Assembly: GCA_018828385.1 (NCBI GenBank)
Contig: JAHJVE010000009.1
Location: 36,910 to 100,909, forward strand
Length of the DNA stretch: 64,000 nt
From: Gammaproteobacteria bacterium
Lineage (GTDB): Bacteria > Pseudomonadota > Gammaproteobacteria > Burkholderiales > Rhodocyclaceae
Reading direction: 5' to 3'
Part shown: one piece after another, positions 431-64,000 of the stretch
How positions within the stretch are numbered: the first letter of the stretch is position 1
Layout: the number at the start of each line of letters is the position of its first letter
Translations under genes and position numbers: made by a program
Notes under the pieces: generated by a model
Database searches by the model: none
What the model was told of the DNA's origin: nothing
What the model saw: the letters and a program-made list of their open reading frames with translations, nothing else

Positions 431-1099
431 CTACCGCAAAGTGATGATTTTCCAGCCCATTTCACTGGCATGCGCATGCAGCTTTTCGTCCGGATCGACG
501 GCTACCGGCGTCTTGACCTTGGTCATCAGCGGCAGGTCGTTGTGCGAGTCGCTGTAGAAATAACTGTCGGCGAAGCTGCCCCACCACAGGCCGAGCGATT
601 CGAGCCAGGCTTCGACGCGGGCGATCTTGCCTTCGCGGAAGGACGGCGTGCCGCTCGGCGACCCTGAAAATCGGCCATTTTCCGGGTTGACCGTGGGAAT
701 CGTGCCGATCAGATGCGGAATGCCGAATTCGCGGCCGATGGCGCCGGTGACGAAGCTGTTGGTGGCGGTGACGATGGCGCACAGGTCGCCGGCGTCGAGA
801 TGTTGCTTGACCAAGGCCCGGGCCGGCTGGCCGATGATCGGCAGGATGTGGCGGGTCATGTATTCACGGTGCCAGGCGTCGAGTTCTTCACGCGAATGGC
901 GGGTCAGCGGGGCGAGCTGGAAATTCAGAAATTCGTAGATGTCGAGCGTGCCGGACTTGTATTGCTCGTAGAACTGAATGTTTTTGGCTTCCTGCAACTC
1001 GCGGTCGACGACGCCCTTGCTGATCAGGAATTGCGCCCATTCAAAGTCGGAGTCGCCGGTGAGCAGGGTGTTGTCGAGGTCGAAGAGGGCGAGTTTCAT
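431..1099 (-). CDS. HAD-IB family hydrolase (SerB/histidinol-phosphatase-like)
   Basis: MKLALFDLDNTLL (HAD motif I), TATN, YSDSHNDLP motifs; conserved hda-HAD-pcnB neighbourhood. Confidence 0.9.
   Translation of the reverse strand: MKLALFDLDNTLLTGDSDFEWAQFLISKGVVDRELQEAKNIQFYEQYKSGTLDIYEFLNFQLAPLTRHSREELDAWHREYMTRHILPIIGQPARALVKQHLDAGDLCAIVTATNSFVTGAIGREFGIPHLIGTIPTVNPENGRFSGSPSGTPSFREGKIARVEAWLESLGLWWGSFADSYFYSDSHNDLPLMTKVKTPVAVDPDEKLHAHASEMGWKIITLR
660..696 (+). repeat. Dispersed TTGACCGT motif (in HAD gene)
   Basis: GAAAATCGGCCATTTTCCGGGTTGACCGTGG. Confidence 0.8.
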
Positions 1100-1220
1100 G
1101 GGGTGGTGGTTCATCCGGGAGTGGTGGCTACGGCGAAAGATGCGCCATTATATCGACATGGGCCTTGGGGCGGCTCTTGCCTCGGGATCGGGGGTCACGA
1201 TGTTGGCTACGGAGATTTCC

Positions 1221-2168
1221 ATGCAATTTATTCTCGGCGTGATTCTGCTGTGCTCATCGCTGCACGGCGTGGCGGGCGAGGTGCTGACCGATGGCGTGCG
1301 GCTGGCGCCCGGCGATTACGAGCGCCATGTGACCCATCAGGGCTTGAACCGACGCTATCTGGTTCATGTGCCGCGCCGGGATGATCCGCTCAAACCGCTC
1401 CCCTTGGTGCTGGCCTTTCACGGCGGTGGCGGACACGCCGAATTCATGGCCGACGACGCGCGTTACGGCTTGATCGGCAAGGCGGACAAGGAGGGCTTTG
1501 TCGTGGTCTTTCCCAATGGCTACAGCCGCCTGCCGGGCGGCCGCTTTGCCACGTGGAATGCTGGTGGCTGCTGCGGCGCTGCCCGCGATGGAAATATCGA
1601 CGACGTCGGCTTTGCGCGTGCCGTTGTCGCGGCCGTCCGCGCGCAGTTGCCGATCGACCCGGAGCGCATCTTTGCGACGGGGATGTCGAACGGCGGCATG
1701 ATGAGTCATCGCCTGGCTTGCGAAGCCGGCGATCTGTTTCGTGCCGTCGCCTCCGTGGCGGGGACCGATGCGACGACAAGTTGCTCACCTTCCCGTGCGG
1801 TTTCCGTCCTTCATATCCATGCCCGCGACGACACCCATGTCCTGTTCAACGGTGGGGCGGGCGAGGGGGCGTTTCGGGATGCGAGCAAGATCATGGATTT
1901 TGTTTCGGTGCCGGAAACGATGGCGCGCTGGGTGCGGCGCAATCGTTGCAGTGCCGCGCCGCCTGCCGTCCGGGCCTGGCCCGGGGCGCACTGCGAAACC
2001 TATTCCGGTTGCGCCGACGGGGTGGCGTTACAGCTCTGCGTGACGGACGACGGCGGTCATAGCTGGCCGGGGGCGCAGCGGGTGCGCCGGGGGAAAGCGC
2101 CTGCGTCAACGGCGCTCGATGCAAACGATACTATCTGGGCGTTTTTCAGGGATGCGGCCAGTCGCTGA
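1221..2168 (+). CDS. Secreted PHB-depolymerase/LpqC-like esterase (alpha/beta hydrolase)
   Basis: GGAG RBS at 1211 then signal-like N-terminus; LVLAFHGGGG, TGMSNGG nucleophile elbow, GGHSWPG. Confidence 0.85.
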   Translation: MQFILGVILLCSSLHGVAGEVLTDGVRLAPGDYERHVTHQGLNRRYLVHVPRRDDPLKPLPLVLAFHGGGGHAEFMADDARYGLIGKADKEGFVVVFPNGYSRLPGGRFATWNAGGCCGAARDGNIDDVGFARAVVAAVRAQLPIDPERIFATGMSNGGMMSHRLACEAGDLFRAVASVAGTDATTSCSPSRAVSVLHIHARDDTHVLFNGGAGEGAFRDASKIMDFVSVPETMARWVRRNRCSAAPPAVRAWPGAHCETYSGCADGVALQLCVTDDGGHSWPGAQRVRRGKAPASTALDANDTIWAFFRDAASR

Positions 2169-2188
2169 TTGGCCAGCTTTTCCTTGCC

Positions 2189-2833: not shown

Positions 2834-2913
2834 CGGGATGGCGAATGGGAAAGGGGGCGAAATTCTAGCATTGCTCCCGACCGCGGCGCCGATTTCAGCC
2901 GGCGCTGCGTTGT

Positions 2914-3225
2914 TTACACCGCTGCGCGCTGGAGGATGACGGCCAGTTGGGGGTAGTAGCCGGTACAGCTGTTGCGCATCTGGCGTTCCATTTGCAGGCA
3001 TTCGAGCGTGTTGCGGGCGGCTGGCGACTGGCTCAGCAGGTCGGGAAAGGCTTCGCGTGCATCGAGGACCGAAAAGATGGTGGTCAGCAGGCGGGCGCAG
3101 GCCAGGTAGTAGGCCGGGTCGAGCCGGGCAAACTGGGCGCCGCTGTCACAGGTGTCCAGATAGGCCGCGGCGGAAGTGGCCGATACGGCAAGGGAGCTGA
3201 TCTGAGCTGGGGTGAGGTAGGACAT
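2914..3225 (-). CDS. Hypothetical protein (103 aa)
   Basis: ORF with AAGGAG RBS immediately upstream; no recognisable domain. Confidence 0.6.
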   Translation of the reverse strand: MSYLTPAQISSLAVSATSAAAYLDTCDSGAQFARLDPAYYLACARLLTTIFSVLDAREAFPDLLSQSPAARNTLECLQMERQMRNSCTGYYPQLAVILQRAAV

Positions 3226-3353
3226 GGCGCATCTCCTTCGGTAAAGCTCTACCGGAAAACTAGCCCGGCAAGTTCATTAACGACAGGAAATGCTTCACGT
3301 TTAGTGCATTTACGCGCTGTAACACTTTGCTGCAGCGCGCGTACAAACGCTGC

Positions 3354-4628
<1,275 letters not shown>

Positions 4629-4721: not shown

Positions 4722-4758
4722 GATTTGAAATTTGGCCGTTTTTTCCGGTTGACCGTGG
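4722..4758 (+). repeat. Dispersed TTGACCGT motif (intergenic)
   Basis: GATTTGAAATTTGGCCGTTTTTTCCGGTTGACCGTGG. Confidence 0.9.
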
Positions 4759-4885
4759 TAATGCGTTTTTTTCGCCAAATGGCCGGAATGGCGAGGCCGC
4801 TCGGCCGGTTAGGGGAGCTTGGCGGTTTCGGGTAAAATCGCCGTTTTTTCCAGCAGCGTTTGCTGCCCCTTGGCGCCTAAAGACC

Positions 4886-5929: not shown

Positions 5930-6509
5930 GGACGCGTGGCGGGCCGCGGCGATCATCGTCGGCGGCCTGCTACTGCTCAATGGCTGGTCGTCCGTCCGGG
6001 CGGCGAGCAACAAGCCGCCGCACCCGGTGGCATCCAAAGCTAGCCATGCCGAGCCGGCGCCAGCCTTCGGGCCGGCTGACCTGATTGAGGATGGCACCCC
6101 AGGCCTGCGCGGCCTGGCCAGTTTTTACGGCAAGAAATTTGATGGCCGCCAGACGGCCACCGGCGAACGTTTCGACGCCCGGCAATTTACTGCGGCCAGC
6201 AATCGCTTTCCCCTTGGCACCCTGCTCGCCGTTCGGCGCGCCGACAACGACCGGTGCGCCATCGTCAAGGTCAATGACCGGATGCACCGGAAACACCGCA
6301 AACGCATCATCGACGTCTCGCGCAGCGTCGCCGAATACCTCGGCATGGTCCGGGCCGGCGTTGTCTTCGTCAGCGTGGCGCCGGTGAAAAATGGCCGGCC
6401 GGCTGCTGGCTCCGCCGTGTGTCTCGCCGCCTTCGCGCCCGAGCCGGAGTGCGAATCCTGCGGTCAACCGCAAAAAATGCCGGAATTCCTCCCCCCGATC
6501 GAAAACTGA
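5901..6509 (+). CDS. RlpA-family (DPBB) lytic transglycosylase-like protein; start uncertain
   Basis: [37 protein letters not shown]; first in-frame start near the signal-like segment is GTG 5901 overlapping purM. Confidence 0.75.
6458..6494 (-). repeat. Dispersed TTGACCGT motif, variant (in rlpA-like gene)
   Basis: Reverse complement AATTCCGGCATTTTTTGCGGTTGACCGCAG. Confidence 0.65.
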
Positions 6510-7728: not shown

Positions 7729-10700
7729 AGATTTCCGAGGTCTGCATCAAGCGCCCGGTCTTCGCGACCGTGTTGTCGCTCGTCATCATGCTGCTCGGCA
7801 TCGTCTCCTATGACCGGCTGCCGGTGCGCGAGTATCCGAAGATCGACGAGCCGGTGGTGACGGTGACGACCGATTACCGGGGCGCCTCGGCCGACATCAT
7901 CGAGTCGCAGGTGACCAAGCCGCTCGAGGATTCGCTGGCCGGGATCGAAGGAGTGGAAGTGATCACTTCCATTTCGCGGGCCGAACGCAGCCAGATTTCG
8001 GTGCGCTTCAAGCTCGAGCGAGCGCCTGATTCGGCGGCTTCCGATGTCCGCGACCGGGTATCCCGTGTCCGTAGCAAGTTACCGGATGAGGTCGACGAAC
8101 CGGTCATTGCCAAGGTCGAGGCCGATGCCAATCCGGTGATCTGGATCGCCTTTTCGTCAGACCGGCACTCGGCGCTGGAAGTCACCGACGTCGCCACACG
8201 CATCGTCAAGCCGCGTCTGCAGACCTTGCCCGGCGCCGCCGATGTGCGCGTTTTCGGCGACCGCAAGTTCGCCATGCGCATCTGGCTCGACAAGCAGCGA
8301 CTGGCCGCTTACCAGCTGACCCCGGCCGACGTCGAGGATGCCTTGCGCAAGCAGAATGTCGAGGTGCCGGCCGGGCGCATCGAAAGCCGCGAACGCGAGT
8401 TTTCCGTGGTCGCCAACACCGATCTGAGAACGCCCGAGGAGTTCGCTGCCGTCGTCGTCCGGACGGTCAATGGCTATCCGGTGCGCATCGGCGACCTGGG
8501 CCGGGTCGAGATCGGCGCCGCTTCCGAGCGCAGTACCGTCCGCTTCAAGGGCCGTTCGGCCGTGGCGCTCGGCGTCATCAAGCAGGCCACGGCCAATCCG
8601 CTCGAATTGTCGAAAGCACTGCGCGCCGAGGTGCCGAAGATCACCAGCGAGCTGCCGGAGGGCATGAGCGCCAATCTCTCCTACGACTCTTCGGTGTTCA
8701 TAGAGCGCTCGATCGAGTCGGTATTCACGACCATCGGCGAAGCCATCCTGCTCGTCCTGGCGATCATTTTCTTCTTCCTGCGCAATGTTCGGGCGACGCT
8801 GATCCCGCTGGTCACCATTCCGGTGTCGCTGGTCGGTGCCTTCGGCATCATGTTCGCCCTCGGCTTCACGATCAACACGCTGACCCTGCTGGCGCTGGTG
8901 CTGGCCATTGGCCTCGTCGTCGACGACGCCATCGTCATGCTCGAAAACATCTTCCGTCACATTGAGGAGGGCGTGCCGCGCCTGCAGGCGGCCTTGCTGG
9001 GGGCCAAGGAAATCGGCTTTGCGGTGGTTGCGATGACGCTGACACTGGCCGCGGTGTATGCGCCGGTCGCCTTCATGACCGGACGCACCGGCAAGCTGTT
9101 CATCGAATTCGCCCTGACCCTGGCCGGCGCCGTGCTCGTCTCCGGCTTCGTCGCGCTGACCCTGTCGCCGATGATGTGTTCGGTCCTGCTCAAGCATGAG
9201 GAAAAGCACGGCAAGGTCTTCCTGATCGTCGAAGGCTTCCTGAACTGGTTGAATTTTGGCTATAAACGGGCGTTGACCGTAGCATTGAACCGTCGCTGGA
9301 TCGTCCTCGTCGGTTTCGTTCTGGTTGCCGCCTCTTGCGGCGTTCTGCTCAAGGCACTCAAGTCCGAACTGGCCCCGGTCGAGGATCGCGGCATCATTTT
9401 CGGCATGTTCCTCGGGCCGGAAGGCGCAACGCTCGATTACACCGAAAAGTACGCCCGCCAGATCGAAGGCATCTACAGCCAGACCAAGGATTCCGAGCGC
9501 TATTTCGTCGTCGCCGGCAACCCGACGGTCAGCCAGGGCATCTCCATCCTCGGCCTGACCGACTGGAATGAGCGCAGCCGCCGTTCGCCGGAAATCGCCA
9601 AGGAATTGTTCCCGAAATTCGCTGCCATTCCCGGCGTCATGGCTTTCCCGATCACGCCGCCCTCGCTTGGCCAGAGCGCGCGCGAGCGGCCGGTCAATTT
9701 TGTCGTCGTCACCTCCGCCTCCTACGACGAGTTGCAGAAGGTGACCGGGCAGATACTGGCTGAAGTCGCCAAGAACCCGTTGCTGATCAATGTCGATACC
9801 GACCTCAGGCTCAACAAGCCGGAGCTGTCGGTCAACGTCAGGCGCGACAAGGCGGCCGACCTCGGCGTGCCGGTCGAAACCATCGGCCGGACGCTGGAAA
9901 CCTTCCTCGGCGGCCGGCAGGTCACGCGCTTCAAGCGCGATGGCGAGCAGTATGACGTGATCGTCCAGGTCGCTGAAGCCGAGCGGCGCAATCCCGACGA
10001 CATTCGCGACATCTACGTGCGCGGCCGCGACGGGAGCATGATTTCGCTGGAAAATCTGGTCGATGTGAAAGAAACGATCAGCCCGCGCGAACTCAACCAC
10101 TTCGGCCAGCGCCGCGCCGTGGCGATCACCGCCAACCTGGCGCCGGGCTACACGCTCGGCGAGGCGCTGACGTTCATGGACGGCGTCGCCGAACGGGTGC
10201 TCAAGCCGGGCTATGCCGCCGACTACAACGGCCAGTCGCGTGAATTCCGCCAATCGTCGTCATCGCTGGCCTTTACCTTCGGCCTCGCGCTGGCCTTCAT
10301 CTACCTCGTGCTGGCCGCCCAGTTCGAGAGTTTCCGCGACCCCTTCATCATCATGCTCACCGTGCCGCTGTCGATGGCCGGCGCACTGCTCGCCCTCTGG
10401 CTGTCCGGCGGCACGCTCAACGTCTATAGCCAGATCGGCCTGGTCACCCTGGTCGGCCTGATTACCAAGCACGGCATCCTGATCGTCGAGTTCGCCAACC
10501 AGTTGCAGGAAAAGGGCATGGCAATCAAGGAGGCGGTCATCGAATCGGCCTTCCTGCGCCTCCGGCCGATTCTCATGACGACCGGCGCCATGGTCCTCGG
10601 CGCCGTGCCGCTGGCTTTCAGTACCGGGGCGGGGGCAGAATCGAGGCAGCAGATCGGCTGGGTCATCGTCGGCGGTCTGCTGCTTGGTACCTTCTTCACG

Positions 10701-18561: not shown

Positions 18562-18598
18562 GATTTCAATTTTGGGCCAAATTTCCGGTTGACCGTGG
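18562..18598 (+). repeat. Dispersed TTGACCGT motif (intergenic)
   Basis: GATTTCAATTTTGGGCCAAATTTCCGGTTGACCGTGG. Confidence 0.9.
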
Positions 18599-18615
18599 GA
18601 ATCGTCTTGCCGGCT

Positions 18616-21361: not shown

Positions 21362-23188
21362 TTATTGCCCGCGCAGAAACAGTTTGTCGAGTTCGTTGAG
21401 CGACAGTTCCGTCCACGTCGGCCGGCCGTGGTTGCACTGGCCGGCGCGTTCGGTTTCTTCCATCTGGCGGAGCAGGGCGTTCATTTCCGGAACCGTGAGC
21501 AGGCGGCGGGCGCGGACGGCGCCGTGGCAGGCCATGGTGGCGAGGAGTTCGTTGCGCCGGGCGGTGGCGAGCTGGGTGATGCCGTGTTCGCGCAGTTCGG
21601 TGATCAGCGACTTGGCCAGCGCGGCCGGATCGCCGGATTGGAGCAGGGCGGGGACGGCGCGGACGCCGAGCTGATTCGGGCCGAGCGGGGCGATCTGGAA
21701 ACCGAGGTCGGCCAGCGCCTCGGCGTGTTCTTCGACGGCGGCGATGTCGAGCGGGTCGGCCGAGAAGACGGCCGGGATGAGCAGCGATTGCGTGGCGATC
21801 TGACGGTGGTCGAAGGCGGTTTTGAGCTTTTCGTAGAGGATGCGCTCGTGCGCCGCGTGCATGTCGATGAGGATCAGGCCGCGGGCGTTCTGGGCCAGGA
21901 TGTAGATGCCGTGCAGCTGGGCCAGGGCGTAGCCGAGCGGCGGGCCGGCGCTGTCGGGCGGCGGGCTGTCATTGCCACGGTCAACCGGAAAATTGGCCTG
22001 AAATTGAAATGTCGTGGCCGGGCCGGCGGACGATGGCGAAACCTGCTGCGCGGCGCGGGCGAAGGCGAGGTAGGCGGCAGCCGCCGGTTCGGCGACGCCG
22101 AGGCTGCCTTGATGACGGAGCGGCGGGGCGTATTCGGAATTTGGCCGATTTTGCGCGTTGACCGTAGCAGTCTCGCGTTCGACCAGCGCCGGCGCGGCTT
22201 CGGCCTGGACCGGCGCGGCCAGCGTGCGCTGGATGGCGTGGAAGACGAACTGGTGCATGGCGCGCGAATCGCGGAAGCGGACTTCGGTCTTGGCCGGGTG
22301 CACATTGACGTCGACCAGCGCCGGGTCGATGTTGACGAACAGGCAGACGGCCGGCTGGCGGCTGCCGTGCAGCACGTCGCGGTAGGCCTCGCGCAGGGCA
22401 TGGCTGATGATCTTGTCGCGCACGAAACGGCCGTTGACGAAGACGTACTGGCCATCCTTGGCATCGGTCGCGCGCGTCGGATCGATGGCAAAGCCGACGA
22501 TGGACAACGGGCCGGCGCCGGCCTCGACAGCGCGGGCCGCGCCGAGGAAGTCGTCGCCGAGGATGTCGGCAATGCGCCGCGGCGCGTCGGCCGGGGCGAG
22601 CTGGAACAGGTTGCGGCCGTTGTGGGTCAGGCTGATCGCCACATCCGGCCGGGTCAGCGCCAGCCGGCGGACGGCGTCCGCGCAGTGGGCGAACTCGGTG
22701 CTTTCCGATTTCAAGAACTTGCGGCGGGCCGGGGTGTTGAAATAGAGGTCGCGCATCTCGACGACGGTGCCGGCCATCAGGGCGGCTGGTTCGGGTTCGG
22801 CTCCAGGCTCACCTTTCAGTTTCCAGGCATGGCCGGCGCCGCGTTCGCGACTCGTGATGCTCAGCCGGGCAACGGAAGCGACGGAGGCCAGCGCCTCGCC
22901 CCGAAAGCCAAGGGTGCCGACGCATTCAAGGTCGTCGAGGCTGGCAATCTTGGAAGTAGCATGCCGGGTCAGCGCCAGCGCCAGTTCGTCCCTGGCAATG
23001 CCGCAGCCATCATCGGTGATGCGGATCAGCTTGACGCCGCCTTCTTCGAGATGCACCTGAATCGCCTTGCTGCCGGCATCGAGGCTGTTTTCGAGGAGTT
23101 CCTTAAGGACGGAAGCAGGTCTTTCGACCACTTCGCCAGCAGCAATCTGGCTGATCAGTAGGTCGGGGAGGCGGGCAATGGTCGGCAT
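21362..23188 (-). CDS. mutL: DNA mismatch repair endonuclease MutL
   Basis: [54 protein letters not shown]. Confidence 0.97.
21975..22011 (-). repeat. Dispersed TTGACCGT motif (in mutL linker)
   Basis: Reverse complement CATTTCAATTTCAGGCCAATTTTCCGGTTGACCGTGG. Confidence 0.9.
22131..22167 (+). repeat. Dispersed TTGACCGT motif (in mutL linker)
   Basis: TATTCGGAATTTGGCCGATTTTGCGCGTTGACCGTAG. Confidence 0.85.
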
Positions 23189-40709: not shown

Positions 40710-40771
40710 GGCGCTACCTTGTCAAAATTCGCGAGTTCGCTCACGGCTATCGGCAAGTCGGTCGGCCGACG

Positions 40772-40808
40772 GATTTTGATTTTGGCCCGAATTTCCGGTT
40801 GACCGTAG
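40772..40808 (+). repeat. Dispersed TTGACCGT motif (intergenic)
   Basis: GATTTTGATTTTGGCCCGAATTTCCGGTTGACCGTAG. Confidence 0.9.
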
Positions 40809-40824
40809 CAATGCTGTCATCGGA

Positions 40825-47277: not shown

Positions 47278-49323
47278 TCAGAAATCGCCATCGCTGCCCC
47301 CGGCGCTGACAATGGTGCGCAGCACCGTCTGCGCCAGGTTGTCGGCCGTCAGGCCGTAGTGTTCGTAGAGCACCGGGGCCGGGGCCGAGGCGCCGAATTC
47401 GTCGATGCCAACCACATCGCCATCAAGCCCGACGTATTTGTGCCAGAAATCGGTCTGCCCGGCTTCAATGGCGACGCGGCAGACGTCCGGCGGCAGCACG
47501 AGCTTTTTCCACGTCGACGACTGCTGGTCGAAGCGCCGCGTGCAGGGCATCGAGACGACGCGGACGGCGACCCCGCCGGCTTTCAGGATGGCCTGTGCCT
47601 GCATGGCGATGGCCACTTCGGAGCCGGTGGCGATGATCACCGCCTGCAGCTGGCCGTCGGCTTCGGAGAGCACGTAGCCGCCACGGCTGGCACCTTCCGC
47701 CCGGCTCGCCGCGCCGCCGTATTGCGGCAGATTTTGACGCGACAAAAAGAGGGCGGAAGGTCCGTTTTGGCGCTCGAGCGCTTCGGCCCAGGCAATGGCC
47801 GTTTCCAGCTCGTCGCAGGGCCGCCACAGGTCGAGGCCGGGAATGATGCGCAGGCTGCTGGCGTGTTCGACCGGCTGGTGGGTCGGGCCGTCCTCGCCGA
47901 GGCCGATGGAGTCGTGGGTCAGGACATGGACGACGCGCTGGTTCATGAGCGCGCTCATCCGGATGGCGTTGCGGGCGTAGTCGGAGAACACGGCGAAGGT
48001 GCCGCCGTAGGGAATCAGCCCGCCGTGCAGGGCAACGCCGTTCATGATCGCCGTCATGCCGAATTCGCGGACGCCGTAGGAAACGTAGTTGGCCTGGCGG
48101 GCGCCGGCTTCGTGCAAGGCGACGCTGCCCTTGCCGGCAGTCAGGTTGGAGCCGGTCAGGTCGGCCGAGCCGCCGAGCAGTTCGGGCACGCGGTCGACCA
48201 GCAGATCGAGGCAGTTCTGCGACGATTTGCGGGTGGCGACGGCGCCTTCCTTGCGGCCCGCCGCGGCGAGTAGGTCGCTTTTGATTTCGGGCCATTTTTC
48301 CGGTAGACCGTGGGATTGGGTGCGGTCGAACTCAGCGGCGAGTTCCGGGTACTGGGCGCGGTAGGCGGCGAACTTGTTGTGCCAGCCGGCTTCGGCCGCG
48401 GCGCCCGTGGTGCGCGCATTCCACGCGGCACGCAGGCTATCCGGCACTTCGAACGGGCCATGCGGCCAGCCGAGCGCGGCGCGGGTGGCGGCCGTTTCGT
48501 CGGCACCGAGCGGGGCGCCATGCACGTCATGCGAACCGGCCTTGTTCGGCGAACCCCAACCGATCTGCGTGCGGCAGACGATCAGCGTCGGCTGGCCGGT
48601 GACCGCCTTGGCTTCGGCGATGGCCGCGCCGAGCGCAGCCGAATCATGGCCGTCAATCGGCCCGACAACATGCCAGCCATAAGCGCGGAAACGGGCCGGG
48701 GTGTCGTCGCGGAACCAGCCTTCGACGTGGCCGTCGATGGAAATCCCGTTGTCGTCATAGAAGCAGGTCAGCTTGTCGAGGCCCCAGACGCCGGCCAGCG
48801 AGCAGGCTTCGTGGCTGATGCCTTCCATCAGGCAGCCGTCGCCGACGAAGACCCAGGTGCGGTGATCGACGATGTCGCAGCCCGGCCGGTTGTAGCGCTG
48901 GGCCAGCAGTTTCTCAGCCAGCGCCATGCCGACGGCGTTGGTCAGCCCTTGGCCGAGCGGGCCGGTGGTCGTCTCGACGCCGGGCGTGTGGCCGACTTCC
49001 GGGTGGCCGGCGGTGCGGCTGCCGAACTGGCGGAAGTTCTTGAGGTCGTCGAGATTGAGGTCGTAGCCGGTCAGGTGGAGCAGCGCGTAGAGCAGCATCG
49101 AGCCGTGGCCGTTGGACAGCACGAAACGGTCGCGGTCGGGCCACTGCGGGTTGGCGGGATTGTGTTTGAGATGGTCGCGCCACAGCACTTCGGCGATGTC
49201 GGCCATGCCCATCGGCGCGCCAGGGTGGCCGGATTTGGCCTGGTTGACGGCGTCGATGGCGAGAAAGCGGACGGCGTTGGCCAACTCGCGGCGAAAGGTG
49301 GTTTCGGTCTGGTTGCGGTCCAT
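47278..49323 (-). CDS. tkt: Transketolase (CbbT)
   Basis: [33 protein letters not shown]. Confidence 0.96.
48277..48313 (+). repeat. Dispersed motif, TAGACCGT variant (in tkt)
   Basis: TTTGATTTCGGGCCATTTTTCCGGTAGACCGTGG. Confidence 0.75.
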
Positions 49324-50342: not shown

Positions 50343-51410
50343 CTAGGCCGGGTCGCGGAACAAGGAGCGGTCCGAGAACAGCGGCGAAATAAACGGCCGA
50401 TCAGCCCCGGTGTCGTATTCCTGGTGGTAGCGCTCGAGCCGCTCGACCTCGTTCTTCGAGCCGAGGATGACCGGCAGGCGCTGGTGCAGGCTGTCCGGCG
50501 CAATATCGAGGATGCGCTGGCGGCCGGTGCTCGCCGCGCCGCCGGCCTGCTCGATGAGCATGGCCATCGGGTTGGCTTCGTAAAGCAGGCGCAGACGCCC
50601 CGGCTTGGACGGATCCTTGCTGTCCTTCGGATACATGAAAATGCCGCCGCGGATCAGGATGCGATGCACTTCGGCGACCATCGAGGCGATCCAGCGGGTG
50701 TTGAAATCCTCGCCGCGGACGCCCGTCTTGCCGGCCTTGCACTCGCTGACATAGCGCTGCACCGGCGGCTCCCAGAAGCGTTCGTTGGACGTGTTGATGG
50801 CGAATTCGCGGGTATCTTCCGGGACGCGGATATTGGCGTGGGTCAGGATGAAGTTGCCGCTCTCGCGGTCCAGCGTGAAGCCGTGCGTGCCGTTGCCGAG
50901 CGTCAGCACCATCATCGTCGACGGGCCGTAGATGGCGTAGCCGGCGGCCACCTGTTCGCTGCCCGGGCGCAGGTAATCGCCGAGCTGGGCGTCGCCTGCG
51001 GTCGACCGCGAAAATATCGAAAAAATGGTGCCGACCGAGACATTGACGTCGCTGTTCGACGAGCCATCGAGCGGGTCAAAAACCAGCAGGTAACGGCCGC
51101 GCGGGTATTCGGCCGGGATCGGGTAAGGGTCGTCCATTTCCTCGGAAGCCATGCCGGCCAGCTGGCCACCCCACTCGCAGTGACGCAGGATGGCTTCGTT
51201 GGTCAGCACATCGAGCTTCTTCTGCACCTCGCCCTGGACATTGGTGCTGTCCAGCGCGCCATGGTGGCCTGCCAGCGCCCCCTTGGCGACCATCGCCGAA
51301 ATGGTCTTGACGGCGGCGGCGACGTCGATGAGCAGGGCGCCGAGCTCGCCGTGGCTGGACCGGGTGTTTTCGATGACGAACTTGGAAAGAGTAGTGCGAC
51401 CGAATTGCAT
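50343..51410 (-). CDS. fbp: Class 1 fructose-1,6-bisphosphatase (CbbF)
   Basis: [28 protein letters not shown]; GGAG RBS. Confidence 0.95.
50996..51032 (-). repeat. Dispersed motif, degenerate (in fbp)
   Basis: Reverse complement CATTTTTTCGATATTTTCGCGGTCGACCGCAG. Confidence 0.55.
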
Positions 51411-51589: not shown

Positions 51590-52321
51590 ATGCCCCCACT
51601 CCACGCCCTGATCTTCGACGTTGACGGCACGCTCGCCGACACCGAGCGCGACGGCCATCGCCCCGCCTTCAACCACGCCTTCGCCGATCTCGGGCTGGAC
51701 TGGCATTGGGACGAAAGGCTGTACGGCGAACTCCTTGCCATCACCGGCGGCAAGGAACGCATCCGCCACTACGCCGCCCGCCACGCCCCCGCCATCGCCG
51801 CCCGGCCCGAATTCGAAGTGCTCGTCCGCGAGTTGCACGCCGCCAAGACCCGCCACTACCTGCGCCTCGTCGACTCCGGCAGCCTGCCGCTGCGCCCCGG
51901 CGTCGCCGCGCTCATCCAGCACGCCCGCCAGCGCGGCCTGCGCCTCGCCATCGCCACCACGACCACCCCGGAAAACGTCACCGCGCTGCTCCACGCCACG
52001 CTCGGGCCGGACGCCCCGGGCTGGTTCGAAATCATCGGCGCCGGCGACATCGTGCCCAACAAGAAGCCGGCCCCCGACATCTACCGCTGGGTCCTCGACC
52101 GCCTCGCCCTGCCGGCCGACAACTGCCTGGCCATCGAAGACTCCGCCAACGGCCTGGACGCCGCCCGCGCCGCCGGCCTGCGCTGCCTCGTCACGCCCAA
52201 CGACTACACCGCCGGCGACGACTTCAGCGGCGCCTGGCAGGTGCTGGCCGACCTGCGCGAGATCGATCTCGACGCCTTAGCCGCCCCGGAAATTTCAAAA
52301 TTGGCCGAAATTTCCGGTTGA
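51590..52321 (+). CDS. cbbY: CbbY HAD-IA phosphatase
   Basis: ALIFDVDGTLADTERDGHR.AFN, KKPAPDIY, AIEDSANG; adjacent to cbb operon. Confidence 0.9.
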   Translation: MPPLHALIFDVDGTLADTERDGHRPAFNHAFADLGLDWHWDERLYGELLAITGGKERIRHYAARHAPAIAARPEFEVLVRELHAAKTRHYLRLVDSGSLPLRPGVAALIQHARQRGLRLAIATTTTPENVTALLHATLGPDAPGWFEIIGAGDIVPNKKPAPDIYRWVLDRLALPADNCLAIEDSANGLDAARAAGLRCLVTPNDYTAGDDFSGAWQVLADLREIDLDALAAPEISKLAEISG

Positions 52322-52327
52322 CCGTAT
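52291..52327 (+). repeat. Dispersed TTGACCGT motif (supplies cbbY stop codon)
   Basis: AATTTCAAAATTGGCCGAAATTTCCGGTTGACCGTAT. Confidence 0.88.
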
Positions 52328-52408
52328 CAAGCCCCGCCACGCAACCCTCAAGTTCGCCCCCGCATTGGCCGTTAGAGTCGGTAGAACCATCAACCCGGGA
52401 GCGAGACC

Positions 52409-52756: not shown

Positions 52757-52795
52757 GTCGGAGCGGCGGGAAGCCCCGACGCCAAGGGGCGGGGG

Positions 52796-52832
52796 GATTT
52801 CAAAATTGGCTGTTTTTTCCGGTTGACCGTGG
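52796..52832 (+). repeat. Dispersed TTGACCGT motif (intergenic)
   Basis: GATTTCAAAATTGGCTGTTTTTTCCGGTTGACCGTGG. Confidence 0.9.
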
Positions 52833-52863
52833 GAAGCCTGGTTAACCGGAAAATCAAAGACGT

Positions 52864-52888
52864 AAAAAAAGCCGGGAAATCCCGGCTT
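52864..52888 (-). terminator. Rho-independent terminator
   Basis: AAGCCGGG-N4-CCCGGCTT with T run on the minus strand. Confidence 0.75.
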
Positions 52889-52906
52889 CTACGTTCAGGC
52901 GCTTGA

Positions 52907-52975
52907 TCAAGCGGCTTTTTTCAACGGCTCGTTATCGTGCTTGCTGGCGCTCAAAACCTCGATGCCAACAACATG
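52907..52975 (-). pseudogene. 3' remnant of a DUF2283-like gene truncated by repeat copy A
   Basis: Translates HVVGIEVLSASKHDNEPLKKAA*, like the DUF2283 C-terminus (GxVVGIEIL.AS); 5' part replaced by the repeat. Confidence 0.55.
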
Positions 52976-53009
52976 AATAAAGGGGGATAGACCACGGTTT
53001 CTGCGTCTT
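52975..53009 (+). repeat. GGGACAGACCACGG-family repeat, copy A
   Basis: GAATAAAGGGGGATAGACCACGGTTTCTGCGTCTT; 34/35 identical to 54281-54315. Confidence 0.85.
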
Positions 53010-53014
53010 GGCGC

Positions 53015-53629
53015 TCATGGCAAGGACTTAGGGATAGGAATTTCATCCCATGTCAAAACTTCCTCACCGTCGGCTCCCTCGTGGAACTTCAGGTTCTTGA
53101 CCGGGCGCGCTAACAAGAATGGATTGTGCCCACAGGTAATTCGGCCGCCCCACTCAACATCGCCGATTTTGATGTACTGGGCTGGGTATGGGTTGTCGGC
53201 TCTGTGGCGAGCATAGGTAATTTTCTCGTGCAGAGAATATAGGAGATCAACGTAGAGTTGCTCCACATGTTCCAACACTCGGCCGCTTGAGATGCGGTAG
53301 CCCAGAATGGAAACAATTCTCTCGCTCTGCCGCTTTGGAGGAGACGTGCCTTCCCATGTAACAAGCCACGCGGCACCGAGCTTTCGTTTCGGGAATGGAT
53401 TCGGCTGGAAGCGCTTAATCTTCTCAACCTGCTCTTCAATAAATTCTTTCGTCACCCCTTGTTGTTTCAACCATCGCCTTGCTTCCCGGACGACAGCATT
53501 GAACGTAGCGCCCTCACGGAGCGCTAGATGAAGCATTTTTTCAGCGCGCGTGTGATCCTTCGGGTGACTCCCGAACGTTGCAGTCATGCCAGCAAAGCAG
53601 CCAGGAACTTTATCTTTCCAAGTGACCAT
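53015..53629 (-). CDS. Orphan protein in integron cassette (204 aa)
   Basis: Starts 15 nt after the GTTGGGC core site; lower GC; no promoter space. Confidence 0.75.
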   Translation of the reverse strand: MVTWKDKVPGCFAGMTATFGSHPKDHTRAEKMLHLALREGATFNAVVREARRWLKQQGVTKEFIEEQVEKIKRFQPNPFPKRKLGAAWLVTWEGTSPPKRQSERIVSILGYRISSGRVLEHVEQLYVDLLYSLHEKITYARHRADNPYPAQYIKIGDVEWGGRITCGHNPFLLARPVKNLKFHEGADGEEVLTWDEIPIPKSLP

Positions 53630-53638
53630 GATTAAGAC

Positions 53639-53704
53639 GCCCAACGTGGAGCTAAGCTGACTGCGCGGCTTTTCGCGCAGGTCCGATTGAGCGCTTCGTT
53701 ATGC
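53639..53704 (-). mobile_element. Integron attC recombination site (66 bp)
   Basis: Minus strand GCATAAC-5nt-GCTCAATC...CTGCGCG-AAAAGC-CGCGCAG...GCTTAGC-5nt-GTTGGGC: R, L boxes, extra-helical C, central hairpin. Confidence 0.85.
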
Positions 53705-54203
53705 GCTTTGTTTCAGTGGATTTTTCAGATGCGACAGCCTCAGGGTGTTCTGCTCGATTGCATGCACCAGCGAGATGGCCGCAAATTGATGCAATAACTT
53801 TACCTAACAGAACTGCGTCGTCAAATTTTGCGGATCGCTTCATAGACGTAAATGACTTACCGAGCGGACTACCAATCTTCGTTATGTCACTTTCAGTGAT
53901 TGTTTTGTTCAACTCATGTGCGCATAAATTGCGAAGTTTATTAAGGTTGCGGAGGGCTGAAATGATTGAGTCTGGAATGAAATCGAGCGATTCGATAAGA
54001 ACAAGTTTTTGGTGATAAGTGAGGTTCCCGTTTTCGATAATCTTGTCACCTCGTGGGAGTTTTACGATTAAGAGACGCTCCAACAAGTTTTCCGAAAATA
54101 AGTGCGCCCTTAAAACGCGCATTGTTGGATCGCTTTCCGCACCAATTACTTTCTCAAACCGTTCAAACTCTTTCTGTTTGGCAATTTTCTCGAATTCATC
54201 CAT
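53652..54203 (-). CDS. HEPN/MtlR-like protein in integron cassette (183 aa)
   Basis: VLRAHLFSENLL...LNKLRNLCAH (RX4H motif); reads into attC; low GC. Confidence 0.7.
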   Translation of the reverse strand: MDEFEKIAKQKEFERFEKVIGAESDPTMRVLRAHLFSENLLERLLIVKLPRGDKIIENGNLTYHQKLVLIESLDFIPDSIISALRNLNKLRNLCAHELNKTITESDITKIGSPLGKSFTSMKRSAKFDDAVLLGKVIASICGHLAGACNRAEHPEAVASEKSTETKRITKRSIGPARKAAQSA

Positions 54204-54227
54204 TTGTAGTGCTCGGTGATTTATGGG

Positions 54228-54268
54228 GCATAACGTTGAAAATAACCGGCGCCGCGCCGGAAAGGTTG
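54228..54268 (-). mobile_element. Truncated attC (L boxes and R' core retained, outer box lost)
   Basis: Minus strand CTCAACC...GGTTATT-TTCAAC-GTTATGC; GTTATGC is the exact complement of the cassette's GCATAAC box. Confidence 0.7.
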
Positions 54269-54280
54269 AGAAAACGACGG

Positions 54281-54412
54281 GAATAAAGGGGGACAGACCA
54301 CGGTTTCTGCGTCTTTCGAAAATCGGAAATCGTGGTCTGTCCCTTATTGTTCGCTTCTTATTGTTCGCTTATTGTTCGCGCGAAAATTAGAAATCGTGGT
54401 TTTCACCATATT
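54281..54412. repeat. GGGACAGACCACGG-family repeat, copy B: hairpin, 3x TTATTGTTCGC and a degenerate inverted copy
   Basis: 54281-54315 direct copy; AAATCGTGGTCTGTCCCTTATT inverted at 54327-54348; 11-mers at 54344, 54358, 54369; AAATCGTGGTTTTCACC at 54391. Confidence 0.85.
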
Positions 54413-54435
54413 TTGTTGGGGTTTTGAGCAACCTG

Positions 54436-54882
54436 TCAATCATCGCTATACAGTTCGTATCTTCCGGTCATTATGTTTTCCTTTGCTTGGTCTATCCGAT
54501 CCTGGTATATAACCAAAACTGAATTGTCGGAAAGGTTTCTCAGGGCCGCAGCAAAGAAATAATTCTGATTCGCCTCGAACTCGACAGGGAGGTATATGGG
54601 GAATATTCCACCATGAAGCTTGTATTCGTAATGGCCAGGCGGCACTTCAAGATAACCATATTCACCGGTATTCAAAGAGATTTTGGGTTGTCCCTTGATT
54701 TCAAAATTAACATCTGATGCAGCACCGATGATGCCGGTTTTTAATTGGTAAACATAAATTCCTGCCATCCCATCATTCGGCTTCCGGAAATTTGAGATCG
54801 TATCTAAATTTAAATCTCTGTATGGCGTTACCGTACAACCCGTTACGGTAAGCAAGCTTAATATAATTAATAAAAATTTCAT
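54436..54882 (-). CDS. Low-GC lipoprotein (DUF2846-like)
   Basis: Lipobox VTGC; GIYVY, LNTGEYGYLEVPPGHY; DUF call is inference. Confidence 0.7.
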   Translation of the reverse strand: MKFLLIILSLLTVTGCTVTPYRDLNLDTISNFRKPNDGMAGIYVYQLKTGIIGAASDVNFEIKGQPKISLNTGEYGYLEVPPGHYEYKLHGGIFPIYLPVEFEANQNYFFAAALRNLSDNSVLVIYQDRIDQAKENIMTGRYELYSDD

Positions 54883-54896
54883 TTAGTATTTCTGAT

Positions 54897-54926
54897 ATGA
54901 ATAATTGGGACAAACCACGGTTTCTG
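54897..54926 (+). repeat. GGGACAGACCACGG-family repeat, copy C
   Basis: ATGAATAATTGGGACAAACCACGGTTTCTG. Confidence 0.75.
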
Positions 54927-55030
54927 TCCGTGGAATTCTCGGGCGACAAGCCGGACAGTATGAATTTTTGGCCCGGATTGCAAATGGCATTTGTCGCGCA
55001 GCTTTTGGCCTTGCTTGAACGGCCCGGCTG

Positions 55031-55067
55031 GATTTCATTTTTGGCTGTTTTTTCCGGTTGACCGTAG
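55031..55067 (+). repeat. Dispersed TTGACCGT motif (intergenic)
   Basis: GATTTCATTTTTGGCTGTTTTTTCCGGTTGACCGTAG. Confidence 0.9.
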
Positions 55068-55074
55068 CACTGCG

Positions 55075-56727: not shown

Positions 56728-56825
56728 GGCAGAGGGCGGCGATCTGGCTGCTCCCCCTTTATGTCCGGCAAGGACGGTATCCACCGGGGCAAAGGGCCGG
56801 GGATGGTTTTTGGTGTTTGCCAAAC

Positions 56826-56862
56826 CATTTCATTTTTGGCCGTTTTTTCCGGTTGACCGTAG
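56826..56862 (+). repeat. Dispersed TTGACCGT motif (intergenic)
   Basis: CATTTCATTTTTGGCCGTTTTTTCCGGTTGACCGTAG. Confidence 0.9.
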
Positions 56863-56870
56863 CAATCACC

Positions 56871-59753: not shown

Positions 59754-59848
59754 AGTCCCTTTGTCAGTGGTCTGGCCGGCACATTCGAGCCTTGGTTAGC
59801 CCGCCATTTTACGCCACTCCACCAGTTCCCCCGCTTTCCCTGCATCTG

Positions 59849-59885
59849 CCACGGTCAACGGCTTTTTTGCCCGAAAATCGTTTTG
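59849..59885 (-). repeat. Dispersed TTGACCGT motif, shortened spacing (intergenic)
   Basis: Reverse complement GATTTTCGGGCAAAAAAGCCGTTGACCGTGG. Confidence 0.6.
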
Positions 59886-61395: not shown

Positions 61396-61420
61396 GGCTG
61401 GGGGGGCTTTCCCGGCCTCG

Positions 61421-62022: not shown

Positions 62023-62113
62023 CCCCCAAGCCAATCAAAGCCCCTCCCCACCAAACCGACCAGCGTTAAACTCTCCCTTACCAAACAACCAAAAAATTAG
62101 ACCCATCCTGAAC

Positions 62114-63061
62114 ATGAACTTCATCCGTACTTTGACGCTCCGCCAGTTGCAGATTTTCGTCGTCGCTGCGCGGCATCTGAGCTACGCCCGCGCCGCCGAG
62201 GAACTGCACCTGACGCCGCCGGCCGTCTCGATGCAGCTCAAGCAGCTCGAAGACAACGTCGGCTTGCCGTTGTTCGAGCGTCTCGGGCGTGGGGTGGCGC
62301 TGACTGCGGCCGGCGAGTTGCTGGTTCATCACGCCTTGCGCGTGCTCGGCGAGATCAAGGATGCCGAGGCGAATCTGCTGGCCATGCTGGGGGCGGAAAC
62401 CGGGCAGTTGTCGGTCGGGCTGGTCAGCACCGCCAAATATTTCATGCCGCGCCTGCTCGCCCGGTTTGCCCAGTTGCATCCCGGCATCGAGGTGCAGTTT
62501 TCGGTGGGCAACCGCGAAAGCCTGCTCCAGAAGTTGCAGGACAACGCCATCGACCTCGCGGTCATGGGCCGCATTCCGACCGAGATCGATGCGCATGCCG
62601 AGCCGATGGCCAGCCATCCCTACGTGCTGATCGGGCCGGCCGACCATCCGTTGCGGGCGGCGCGCCGCTTCGATTTGCACGAGCTGCGCCAGGAGACTTT
62701 CCTGCTCCGCGAGGAGGGTTCCGGCTCGCGCCGGGTGGCCGAGGAGATGTTCAAGAATCACCTGTTCACGCCGCCGCGCACGATCAGCATGGGCAGCAAC
62801 GAGACGATCAAGCAGGCGGTGATGGCCGGCATGGGCATTGCGCTGATTTCGCTGCATACCTTGCCGCTCGAGCTGAAAACCGGCGAGGTCAGCGTGCTCG
62901 ACGCCATCGGCACGCCCATCGAGCGTACCTGGTACGTGGTGCACATGAACGCCAAGCGCCTGCTGCCGGCCGGCCAGCGTTTCCGCGAATTCCTGCTGGA
63001 CAACGCCGCGGCGGCGCTGGCGCAGGAGTTCGACGTCTATCTTCAGGCCACTGGAGGCTGA
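62114..63061 (+). CDS. cbbR: LysR-family regulator CbbR
   Basis: TLRQLQIF...AAEELHLTPPAVSMQLKQLE, STAKYF, REEGSGSR, SNETIKQAVMAGMG. Confidence 0.92.
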   Translation: MNFIRTLTLRQLQIFVVAARHLSYARAAEELHLTPPAVSMQLKQLEDNVGLPLFERLGRGVALTAAGELLVHHALRVLGEIKDAEANLLAMLGAETGQLSVGLVSTAKYFMPRLLARFAQLHPGIEVQFSVGNRESLLQKLQDNAIDLAVMGRIPTEIDAHAEPMASHPYVLIGPADHPLRAARRFDLHELRQETFLLREEGSGSRRVAEEMFKNHLFTPPRTISMGSNETIKQAVMAGMGIALISLHTLPLELKTGEVSVLDAIGTPIERTWYVVHMNAKRLLPAGQRFREFLLDNAAAALAQEFDVYLQATGG

Positions 63062-64000
63062 GCCGGGGGGCGGTTCACGAAGCGCAGTTCCTGCGGGTAG
63101 GGGAAGAAATCCTCGACGTGGCCGTCACGGATCTTGCGCTGGGCTTCCTGCCAGAAGTCGGTGCCGAGCAGGTCGCGGTGGTGTTTCAGGAAGACCTTGC
63201 GGACCAGCGGCGAGCCGAGCAGGAAGGTGGCGAATTCTTCGGGGAAGACGTCGCCGCGGGCCACCGGGTACCACACCTCGCCCGACATTTCCGTCTCGAA
63301 ATCCGGCGCCGGCGGGATCTTGCGGAAGTTGATGTCGGTCATGTAGTCGATTTCGTCGTAGTCGTAGAAAACGACGCGGCCGTAGCGCGTGACGCCGAAA
63401 TTCTTCCATAGCATGTCGCCCGGGAAGATGTTGGCCTGGGCCATTTCGCGGATGGCGCTGCCGTATTCGACGATGGCGTTTTCGAGGGCTTCGACGTTGT
63501 TGGCGCGCTCCATGCGGTCGAGGTGGATGTTGAGCGGTTCCATGCGGCGCTCGATGTAGAGGTGCTTGATGATGAGCTGGTCGCCATCGATCTCAAAGCA
63601 GGACGGGGCGAATTGGTGCAGTTCGGCCAGGACCTCGTCGGCGAAGCGCTTGAGCGGGAAGAGGACGTTGGAAAATTCCAGCGTATCGGCCATGCGGCCG
63701 ACGCGGTCGACCTGCTTGACCATGAGGAATTTCTGCTTGACCGTGGCATGGTCGGTCGTCTTCGAGGGGCCGAAAACGTCCTTGATGATCTTGAAGACGT
63801 AGGGGTAGGACGGCAGCGTGAAGACGAGCATGACCATGCCGCGGATGCCCGGCGCCATGATGAATTTGTCTTCCGAATGGTGCAGGTGGTAGATGAAATC
63901 GCGGAAAAACATGGTTTTGCCCTGCTTGCCGAGGCCGAGCATGATGTACAGCTCGGAGCGCGGCTTGGCGGGCAGGATGGAGCGCAGGAACTGGACGTAG
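63043..64000 (-). CDS. aceK: Isocitrate dehydrogenase kinase/phosphatase, C-terminal part
   Basis: APGIRGMVMLVFTLPSYPYVFKIIKD, DRVGRMADT, IFPGDML.KNFGVTRYGRVVFYDYDEI. Confidence 0.95.
   Translation of the reverse strand, partial: YVQFLRSILPAKPRSELYIMLGLGKQGKTMFFRDFIYHLHHSEDKFIMAPGIRGMVMLVFTLPSYPYVFKIIKDVFGPSKTTDHATVKQKFLMVKQVDRVGRMADTLEFSNVLFPLKRFADEVLAELHQFAPSCFEIDGDQLIIKHLYIERRMEPLNIHLDRMERANNVEALENAIVEYGSAIREMAQANIFPGDMLWKNFGVTRYGRVVFYDYDEIDYMTDINFRKIPPAPDFETEMSGEVWYPVARGDVFPEEFATFLLGSPLVRKVFLKHHRDLLGTDFWQEAQRKIRDGHVEDFFPYPQELRFVNRPPAQPPVA
63710..63746 (+). repeat. Dispersed TTGACCGT motif, degenerate (in aceK)
   Basis: GAGGAATTTCTGCTTGACCGTGG. Confidence 0.5.

Follow-up and report, generated by a model that had tools for sequence, protein, structure and literature searches.

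The 64,000-nucleotide stretch of contig JAHJVE010000009.1 analysed here (the window, at its full length) raises the question of why a single long, asymmetric word should recur between its genes and, in weaker form, inside them. A sequence-only reading of this DNA had proposed that the word is a DNA-uptake signal. Our analysis suggests, with a confidence that stays a little short of even, that this 41-bp word, ATTTCAATTTTGGCCATTTTTTCCGGTTGACCGTAGCAATC, is a new self tag resembling the known uptake signals.

The window lies inside the 4.31-Mb, 24-contig genome (G000) of an Azonexus/Dechloromonas-group bacterium of the Rhodocyclaceae. A logo built from all 910 instances of the 8-mer TTGACCGT in this genome has sharp edges, with the word extending from position -26 to +14 around the core; this gives a length of 41 bp where about 37 bp had been estimated, and the iterated position weight matrix (PWM) holds ~38.8 bits of information. 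The autocorrelation of the A/T profile peaks at a lag of 10, with troughs at lags 5–6 and 14–15, showing that the A/T blocks, which are set apart by GGCC, CCGG and the GACCG core, are helically phased, as the sequence-only reading had described. We detected no hairpin, palindrome or terminal repeat within the motif, since both strands of the consensus fold no better than shuffles (z-scores 0.6 and -1.4) and the logo is asymmetric, and an Rfam scan of the window produced no family match. Neither target duplications nor an insertion footprint were seen, in keeping with the earlier description of copies lacking terminal inverted repeats and target duplications.

In the window, TTGACCGT occurs 20 times against 1.32 expected, with a maximum of 5 in 100 dinucleotide shuffles, which bears out the first estimate of at least 20 against 1–2. 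The PWM recovers 23 of the 24 core positions originally listed, at scores of at least 14.9 bits; the remaining one, at 63737, is an exact 8-mer in a weak context that scores below 8 bits and is not a convincing copy. Two further exact 8-mers, at 8463 and 24351 (both on the minus strand), are not motif copies, and two weak copies, at 28117 (plus strand) and 33221 (minus strand), are added to the list. Intergenic or gene-edge copies number 10 and mostly score 47–62 bits, while the 15 genic copies mostly score 15–43 bits, a division close to the ~10 near-consensus intergenic and ~14 weaker genic copies first described. The high-scoring exceptions among the genic copies are two that lie in the MutL linker.

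The excess extends through the whole source genome. Its commonest 12-mer is ACGGTCAACCGG (CCGGTTGACCGT), with 403 copies; the 14 12-mers that follow it in rank, like every one of the top 16-mers, are parts of the motif that overlap one another. A genome-wide PWM scan, a check that the sequence-only reading had recommended, gave 1,181 hits scoring 10 bits or higher, where a third-order Markov control sequence gave 6; from 35 bits upward the counts were 709 and 0. Because the core is partly self-complementary, some hits are echoes; their removal leaves 1,160 copies, one per 3.7 kb. These are divided between the strands (595 plus, 565 minus) and spaced in a Poisson-like manner (coefficient of variation 1.0), with 53.5% of neighbours co-oriented, so that the 18:6 strand bias of the window is a local fluctuation. 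Replication polarity is absent, with 488 copies on the leading and 451 on the lagging strand as judged by the sign of GC skew, which rules out an architecture-imparting sequence of the Chi or KOPS type. True inverted pairs are rare (~7 in the genome), and a scan of viral contigs yielded 36 stretches with the motif, nearly all of them single-copy.

Copies are found both inside and between genes, and they favour the 3' ends of transcription units, clustering shortly past stop codons. According to our own gene calls, which are crude (82% coding, ~3,400 genes) and therefore make these fractions approximate, 707 copies (61%) are genic, 348 intergenic and 105 straddle gene ends, whereas at 50 bits or more intergenic copies prevail (220 versus 97 genic). 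Per kb, convergent spacers hold 0.91 copies, tandem ones 0.42, divergent ones 0.39 and genes 0.20. Between tandem genes, the motif follows the upstream stop codon at a median distance of 44 nt and, when written 5'-ATTTC..., has the same orientation as the flanking genes in 81 cases and the opposite one in 108. A promoter or intrinsic terminator element is ruled out by this variable orientation, by the lack of a conserved -10 box downstream of the motif in the logo and by the motif itself having no hairpin. The 40 nt located 5' of the motif fold better than control spacers (mean -11.0 versus -8.8 kcal/mol, P = 4e-10), and a hairpin of -12 kcal/mol or lower precedes 51–56% of copies when a gene reads toward the motif, compared with 30–35% otherwise. 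From this excess on the gene-facing side it follows that in about one third of the intergenic copies the T-rich half of the motif comes after a putative terminator hairpin, and this half, ATTTCAWTTTT, can serve as the terminator T-tract. In the window, a GC-rich hairpin stands directly 5' of the motif at 52770–52837, 56800–56867 and 40745–40813.

To see how copies arise, syntenic regions were compared with five congeners, of which G001, G003 and G019 are rich in the motif, G020 spells it in a dialect and G005 is motif-free. Among the window's 15 genic copies, 12 can be aligned without indels, 41 nt to 41 nt, with orthologous coding sequence, and the PWM score of genic copies drops stepwise with phylogenetic distance, as in the following scores (in bits):

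Copy at 26687: G000 27, G001 23, G003 12, G019 -19, G020 -18, G005 -24
Copy at 28117: G000 16, G001 16, G003 8, G019 -5, G020 -29, G005 -35
Copy at 9247: G000 37, G001 -8, G003 -23, G019 -25, G020 -40, G005 no orthologue

When sites bearing the motif in G000 were paired with motif-less counterparts, divergence was 29.9% within the 41 nt and 16.7% in the flanks (±120 nt around each site), with zero gaps. G000 holds the better-matching base at 247 of the 281 differences, a statistic that is partly circular because the pairs were picked by score difference; the gapless excess of divergence is not circular. Where both genomes carry the copy, the motif is less diverged than its surroundings, with 70 of 902 sites differing (7.8%) against 625 of 5,166 in the flanks (12.1%) by a hand sum. 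The substitutions that build copies are both synonymous and non-synonymous, including amino-acid replacements, and the genic copies are spread very unevenly over the four stop-free frames, the top peptides being IATVNRKxxPK, FxFGxFFRLTVA and FPVDR. Orthologous intergenic copies are conserved, and some spacers in distant relatives have no copy. This comparison demonstrates that a directional force acts base by base on a 41-bp target; the population-genetic signature proves directional drive or selection, not the step at which the bias acts. Because the genic copies are of colinear, gapless, substitutional origin, transposition is excluded for them, and the colinear orthologues, together with the lack of secondary structure, refute an identification of the motif as a miniature inverted-repeat transposable element (MITE) or repetitive extragenic palindrome (REP), which the sequence-only reading had named among the findings that would overturn its proposal.

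The copies in the window, with their PWM scores and their state in the relatives, are as follows:

661–701, plus strand: genic copy, 35.3 bits; colinear with motif-less sequence in G019 (-7) and G005 (-16), with 19/41 substitutions and no gap; peptide AVDVATGAFTGQ to TVNPENGRFSGS
3613–3653, plus strand: genic copy, 33.7 bits; also in G001 and G003 (35) and in G020 (25); the same codons score -13 in G019 and 0 in G005
4723–4763, plus strand: intergenic copy, 54.4 bits; retained in G003 and G019; the spacer in G001 has ~14 kb of extra DNA
6453–6493, minus strand: genic copy near the 3' end of a gene, 34.6 bits; relatives differ by many indels in this region of the protein
9247–9287, plus strand: genic copy in an RND-type (resistance-nodulation-division) permease gene, 37.1 bits; gained in G000 only, orthologues scoring -8 to -40 with 15–19/41 substitutions and no gap; flanks only 9–19% diverged; peptide NAGYKKVLTTS to NFGYKRALTVA
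18563–18603, plus strand: intergenic copy, 56.4 bits; a 4.4-kb insertion of G001 lies exactly at the 5' edge of the motif
21970–22010, minus strand: genic copy, 52.8 bits, in the inter-domain linker of MutL; G003 and G019 have it too; sequence unrelated there in G001, G020 and G005
22132–22172, plus strand: genic copy in the MutL linker, 48.3 bits; linker length varies among relatives
24808–24848, minus strand: genic copy, 35.3 bits; in all five relatives, with falling score (35, 32, 31, 22, 17)
26375–26415, plus strand: genic copy with the core TCGACCGT, 38.4 bits; in G001 and G003; -35 in G019
26687–26727, plus strand: genic copy caught building up, 27.3 bits; peptide STAEV to STVAV
28117–28157, plus strand: weak genic copy, 16.0 bits
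33221–33261, minus strand: weak genic copy, 18.6 bits
33505–33545, plus strand: genic copy, 34.1 bits; shared with G001 alone; G003, G019 and G020 score -28 to -45
34876–34916, plus strand: weak genic copy, 14.9 bits
36715–36755, minus strand: intergenic copy, 46.9 bits; retained in G001, G003 and G019 despite a diverging adjoining spacer
40773–40813, plus strand: intergenic copy, 53.9 bits; variable DNA abuts its 5' edge, and homology with G001, G003 and G019 restarts at 40772–40780
48278–48318, plus strand: genic copy with the core TAGACCGT, 42.5 bits; 1/41 nt differs from G001 and G003, flanks 5–13%
50991–51031, minus strand: genic copy, 26.0 bits; scores in the comparison 26, 15, -17, -35 and 8
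52292–52332, plus strand: copy overlapping a gene end, 50.7 bits
52797–52837, plus strand: intergenic copy preceded by a GC hairpin, 53.3 bits; homology to G001, G003 and G019 stops at 52830–52834
55032–55072, plus strand: intergenic copy, 56.3 bits; homology to G003 restarts exactly at 55032
56827–56867, plus strand: intergenic copy preceded by a hairpin, 61.7 bits, the top score in the window
59844–59884, minus strand: degenerate intergenic copy, 23.9 bits
61703–61743, plus strand: intergenic copy, 58.0 bits

The two linker copies in mutL (21362–23188) are opposed, and the linker differs in length and sequence across all six genomes compared. Two co-oriented near-consensus copies flank a variable islet at 52838–55031, where homology with G001, G003 and G019 stops and restarts at the motif edges. 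Accessory segments that are absent from G000 also hold copies: one of 14 kb in G001 (L002:1846–15982) has 7 near-consensus copies and one of 11.5 kb in G003 (L014:7012–18550) has 5. Both segments have native G+C content and codon usage, and their copies all share one orientation, whatever the direction of the genes.

A search of related genomes, also recommended by the sequence-only reading, found the motif there in dialects. An exact 22-mer of it occurs in genomes of Azonexus sp., Ferribacterium limneticum, Dechloromonas sp. and in Rhodocyclaceae metagenome-assembled genomes, and the spelling around the core differs as follows:

G000 and G001: ...GACCGT-AGCAATC, in G000 GTAGCAATC (GTAGCA)
G003: ...GACCGT-GG (GTGG)
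G019: ...GACCGT-CAAA (GTCAAA)
G020: ...GACCGC-AGCA, that is GACCGCAGCA (GCAGCA)
G179: a shorter form, the T-tract plus GGTTGACCGTGG

In the 438 kb sampled from G005 we found neither the motif nor any other over-represented 12-mer. Counted in 121 congeners, the pattern TTTTNNNGGTTGACCG occurs between 0 and ~350 times per genome, reaching at least 200 in 16 of the 121, while the reversed pattern used as a control occurs at most twice. In a tree of the single gene mutL, the genomes G000, G001, G003, G004 and G019 cluster; G020 and G018 carry the motif on other branches, whose placement this tree leaves unresolved. Inside the motif-rich mutL clade, G007 has 46 copies of the dialect-tolerant pattern versus ~340 in its neighbours, a shortfall that might reflect decay, yet another dialect or a problem with the assembly (contamination 10%). 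Outside the genus, among about 150 genomes sampled from the family, the 9-mer core is enriched only in the 1.8-Mb, A/T-richer genome G102, with 196 copies versus 22 for the control. Its copies are, as a rule, arranged in inverted pairs that read CCACGGTCAAC, a T-run, an A-run and GGTTGACCGTGGA, forming long terminator-like palindromes, for example at L178–L206; no such pairs were found in G163, a congener of G102.

DNA that appears to be mobile is depleted of the motif. An 80-kb integrative and conjugative element (ICE) in the source genome (G000:C23:1–80000), with genes for TraC and a TraD/TraG-type coupling protein, has 0 copies where 21.5 are expected; it also encodes what we take, by eye, to be an SNF2-type helicase and a large Tn3-like open reading frame (ORF). 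Two contigs with mobile-element genes are poor in copies as well: C14, with a Tn3 transposase, has 1 copy against 18.3 expected, and C10, which encodes a large Eco57I-type methylase fusion and, judged by eye, an FtsK-like protein and an RND pump of the heavy-metal type, has 7 against 40.8.

The genome further encodes the competence genes that the sequence-only reading had proposed to look for. We found an open frame of 778 aa for ComEC, a small ComEA that is secreted and has a helix-hairpin-helix, DprA, and pilus genes of the pilMNOPQ set (pilM, pilO, pilP and pilQ), together with four further secretins and about eleven pilin-like genes, which include an MSHA-like cluster and a PilE-FimT minor-pilin operon. 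One PilE-like pilin (G000:C7:186305–186553) passes the threshold of the Pfam family ComP_DUS (PF16732) with 43.6 bits. In the 8 kb following the PilE-like and FimT-like pilins (G000:C7:186149–194389), a gene caller based on codon usage found no gene, which suggests a minor-pilin operon of atypical composition. In the MSHA-like cluster, a pilin-like gene (G000:C5:219907–220765) has one motif copy at its 5' end, where the ORF reads MRRAFDFRPFFRVDRGFTLVE... and the start codon is uncertain, and another just past its 3' end. An orphan pilin (C13:31088) was found only in G000 and G020. A search of PDB sequences with the pilins gave only generic type IV pilin matches, and NCBIfam only the generic N-terminal pilin domain.

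Taking these observations together, we propose an uptake bias, with recombination as the driver, and a receptor that reads the word. In such a scheme, a competence DNA receptor, acting with the type IV pilus, ComEA and ComEC, would prefer DNA that carries the core CCGGTTGACCGT and helically phased T-tracts. Fragments with a better match would enter the cell more often and replace the resident allele through homologous recombination, so that each substitution improving the match might be driven to fixation in any sequence able to bear it. Spacers free of constraint, shortly past stop codons, would then come to lie near the consensus, while coding DNA would acquire graded partial matches in the tolerated frames. 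Foreign DNA would be without the word, and a preferred spelling that drifts between species would yield dialects.

Several observations weigh against an uptake function. At 41 bp and ~39 bits, the word is far longer and more fully specified than the DNA uptake sequence (DUS) of 10–12 bp or the core of the uptake signal sequence (USS), and such length and information would also fit a multi-part DNA-binding protein. Its distribution within the genus is patchy, with 0–2 copies in the sister clade of the mutL tree (G005, G017, G002 and G014), and its 9-mer core is enriched in only 3 of about 150 genomes from 79 genera of the family, showing that it is not family-wide. The competence genes listed above are widespread among bacteria lacking an uptake sequence, E. 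coli among our controls, and are necessary rather than discriminating. PF16732 also occurs in motif-free genomes, being present in 37 of the 41 that were compared from the order. The PilE-like and FimT-like pilins are hypervariable, with 84–87% identity in G001 and G003 and elsewhere 43% or a match of the N-terminus only. None of the profiled pilins, being hypervariable or absent in other motif-rich genomes, tracks the motif count, and no receptor candidate is supported. Depletion in mobile DNA and the presence of dialects would likewise be produced by any host-specific binding site. A literature search revealed no account of Dechloromonas, Azonexus or Ferribacterium undergoing natural transformation, and a search for uptake sequences, competence and repeats in Dechloromonas, Rhodocyclales and Azonexaceae found no description of the motif. 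The computational checks that the sequence-only reading had recommended for its uptake-signal proposal have all been favourable, while no receptor is tied to the motif and the motif does not extend through the family; we keep our confidence below half because of the missing transformation reports, the unusual length and information, the patchiness within the genus and the lack of a supported receptor candidate.

The main rival, which we regard as unlikely, is a genome-wide docking site for an abundant DNA-binding or DNA-bending protein, kept by selection at each site; a nucleoid-associated protein, a loading site for gyrase or topoisomerase, and an insulator of transcription units at gene ends are the candidates. 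A long multi-part word of 41 bp and ~39 bits, with GGCC and CCGG between T-tracts phased at ~10 bp, is what such a protein might read, and the conserved orthologous intergenic copies and the strong preference for 3' ends of transcription units, convergent spacers and the neighbourhood of terminator hairpins are consistent with it. In E. coli, sites in REPs and bacterial interspersed mosaic elements (BIMEs) that bind gyrase and IHF occupy similar places, and the patchy distribution in the genus fits gain and loss of the gene for one DNA-binding protein. However, ~700 genic copies with an amino-acid cost and graded partial matches are hard to obtain through selection at each site, spacing is random without macrodomain restriction or polarity, and we know of no nucleoid protein that has ~1,000 sites of such information content. 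Some other biased transmission or repair, such as packaging into gene-transfer agents or vesicles, or nicking followed by gene conversion of near-matches, appears improbable. Directed substitutions, dialects and absence from foreign DNA are expected under any biased transfer, but the stepwise rise of scores across species argues against a one-step templated conversion, very-short-patch repair shapes only 4–5-mers, and gene-transfer agents known to us package DNA without sequence preference; no such system turned up here, although none was searched for.

A recombination module, in which the word acts as an att- or attC-like site or as a portable 41-bp patch of homology for cassette exchange, was suggested by homology breaks 0–7 bp from motif edges at four places in the window (18562, 40772–40780, 52830–52834 and 55032), by the islet at 52838–55031 between co-oriented copies, and by the variable segments of G001 and G003 with their 7 and 5 co-oriented near-consensus copies. 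We nevertheless consider it highly improbable. By our own count, only ~5 of ~30 homology breaks in the window touch the motif, which is roughly as expected because breaks and motif share the spacers, where the motif is the last conserved sequence beside variable DNA. Moreover, only one end of the G001 insertion at 18562 carries a copy, the majority of copies are genic and built by substitution, the orientation of neighbours is barely correlated (53.5%), and no integrase or recombinase was linked to the copies. For a mobile miniature element of the MITE, REP, BIME or Ssn-related hairpin type, spread by a transposase or by RAYT (the REP-associated tyrosine transposase), the probability is close to negligible: near-consensus copies are concentrated between genes and some spacers in distant relatives have no copy, but the word lacks hairpin, palindrome, terminal repeat, Rfam match and target duplications, and its genic copies, 61% of the total, are colinear with motif-less orthologues without indels. 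The SRM/NTS repeats related to Ssn, which are palindromic hairpins of the form ATTCCC-N8-GGGAAT (PMC11893778), were rejected as an identity for the motif, which is unlike them in both sequence and structure.

If the uptake reading is correct, the word could define a third family of uptake self-recognition signals, a possibility that we hold only tentatively: a composite 41-bp word with the core GGTTGACCG(T), spelled in dialects in several free-living lineages of the Rhodocyclaceae (Azonexus/Dechloromonas/Ferribacterium and one or more other genera). It would follow that environmental betaproteobacteria undergo sequence-selective natural transformation, through a receptor that differs from, or is only distantly related to, the minor pilin ComP of the Neisseriaceae, and that gene flow is biased toward self DNA in denitrifiers and perchlorate reducers that are abundant in wastewater and groundwater. 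Such a third lineage, whose signal is unrelated to the known ones, much longer and spelled in dialects, and which has cultivable as well as signal-free close relatives, would offer a natural comparative system that could address how uptake specificity rises and decays, what reads the signal and what the drive costs the proteome. Should uptake not be the driver, a 39-bit word that overrides coding constraint at hundreds of sites would instead point to an unknown genome-wide system of DNA-protein interaction.

Among known systems, the hyper-abundant cyanobacterial word HIP1 (GCGATCGC) resembles the motif in occurring within genes, in being maintained by substitution and in having an unproven function. 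HIP1 is an 8-bp palindrome, whereas the motif is composite, asymmetric and 41 bp long and includes phased A/T tracts. REP and BIME sequences and the Ssn-related repeats (NTS/dRS3) are likewise abundant and found at the ends of genes and next to variable regions, but they are palindromic hairpins, intergenic and tied to RAYT or the Ssn nuclease; the motif is asymmetric, unstructured and 61% genic.

Closer likenesses are found among the uptake sequences, which have been named for only two families, the Neisseriaceae and the Pasteurellaceae, both host-associated (bioRxiv 10.1101/2025.10.24.684340, October 2025). The DUS of the Neisseriaceae, whose receptor is ComP, belongs to the same bacterial class as the motif and is spelled in species dialects around a common core; it is associated with terminators and depleted in ICEs and recently acquired DNA, a property of which use has been made before (PMC7371117). 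A pilin of the ComP_DUS family is also encoded in the motif's host. The DUS differs from the motif in being 10–12 bp long and family-wide, and the loose likeness of ACGGTCAA to the DUS CCGTCTGAA is no evidence of homology. ComP is highly conserved among Neisseria, while the corresponding pilin in G000 is hypervariable. A core common across lineages, a further feature of both DUS and USS, is seen here in that G102, of another genus, has the GGTTGACCGTGGA of the motif core.

The USS of the Pasteurellaceae (Hin-type AAGTGCGGT, Apl-type ACAAGCGGT), whose receptor has so far only been predicted, resembles the motif in architecture, with a G+C-rich core and A/T tracts on one side about one helical turn apart; in Haemophilus, these A/T blocks are phased at ~10 bp beside the core. 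Both are present in hundreds to thousands of copies on both strands, in and between genes, with lineage variants, and both are built by point substitution with a frame preference and an amino-acid cost; the USS is frequent at terminators, as the motif appears to be. They are unrelated in sequence, and the USS has a 9-bp core with loose flanks as opposed to 41 bp with conserved GGCC and CCGG. The USS is denser (~1 per 1.2 kb, compared with ~1 per 3.7 kb) and found throughout its family, whereas the motif occurs in parts of one Rhodocyclaceae genus and in one other genus; in G000 the motif copies are mostly single, unlike the USS with its inverted pairs. In the Neisseriaceae and the Pasteurellaceae, biased uptake coupled with homologous recombination works as a molecular drive. 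Roughly one in two copies of DUS and USS (together DUES) is reported to lie in a predicted terminator (bioRxiv 10.1101/2025.10.24.684340). Extreme abundance, substitutional origin at a cost to proteins, graded matches, equal use of the strands, dialects, a lack of copies in mobile DNA, an apparent link to terminators and a core with phased A/T tracts are a combination that so far has been found together only in DUS and USS, and it is this combination that the 41-bp word fits.

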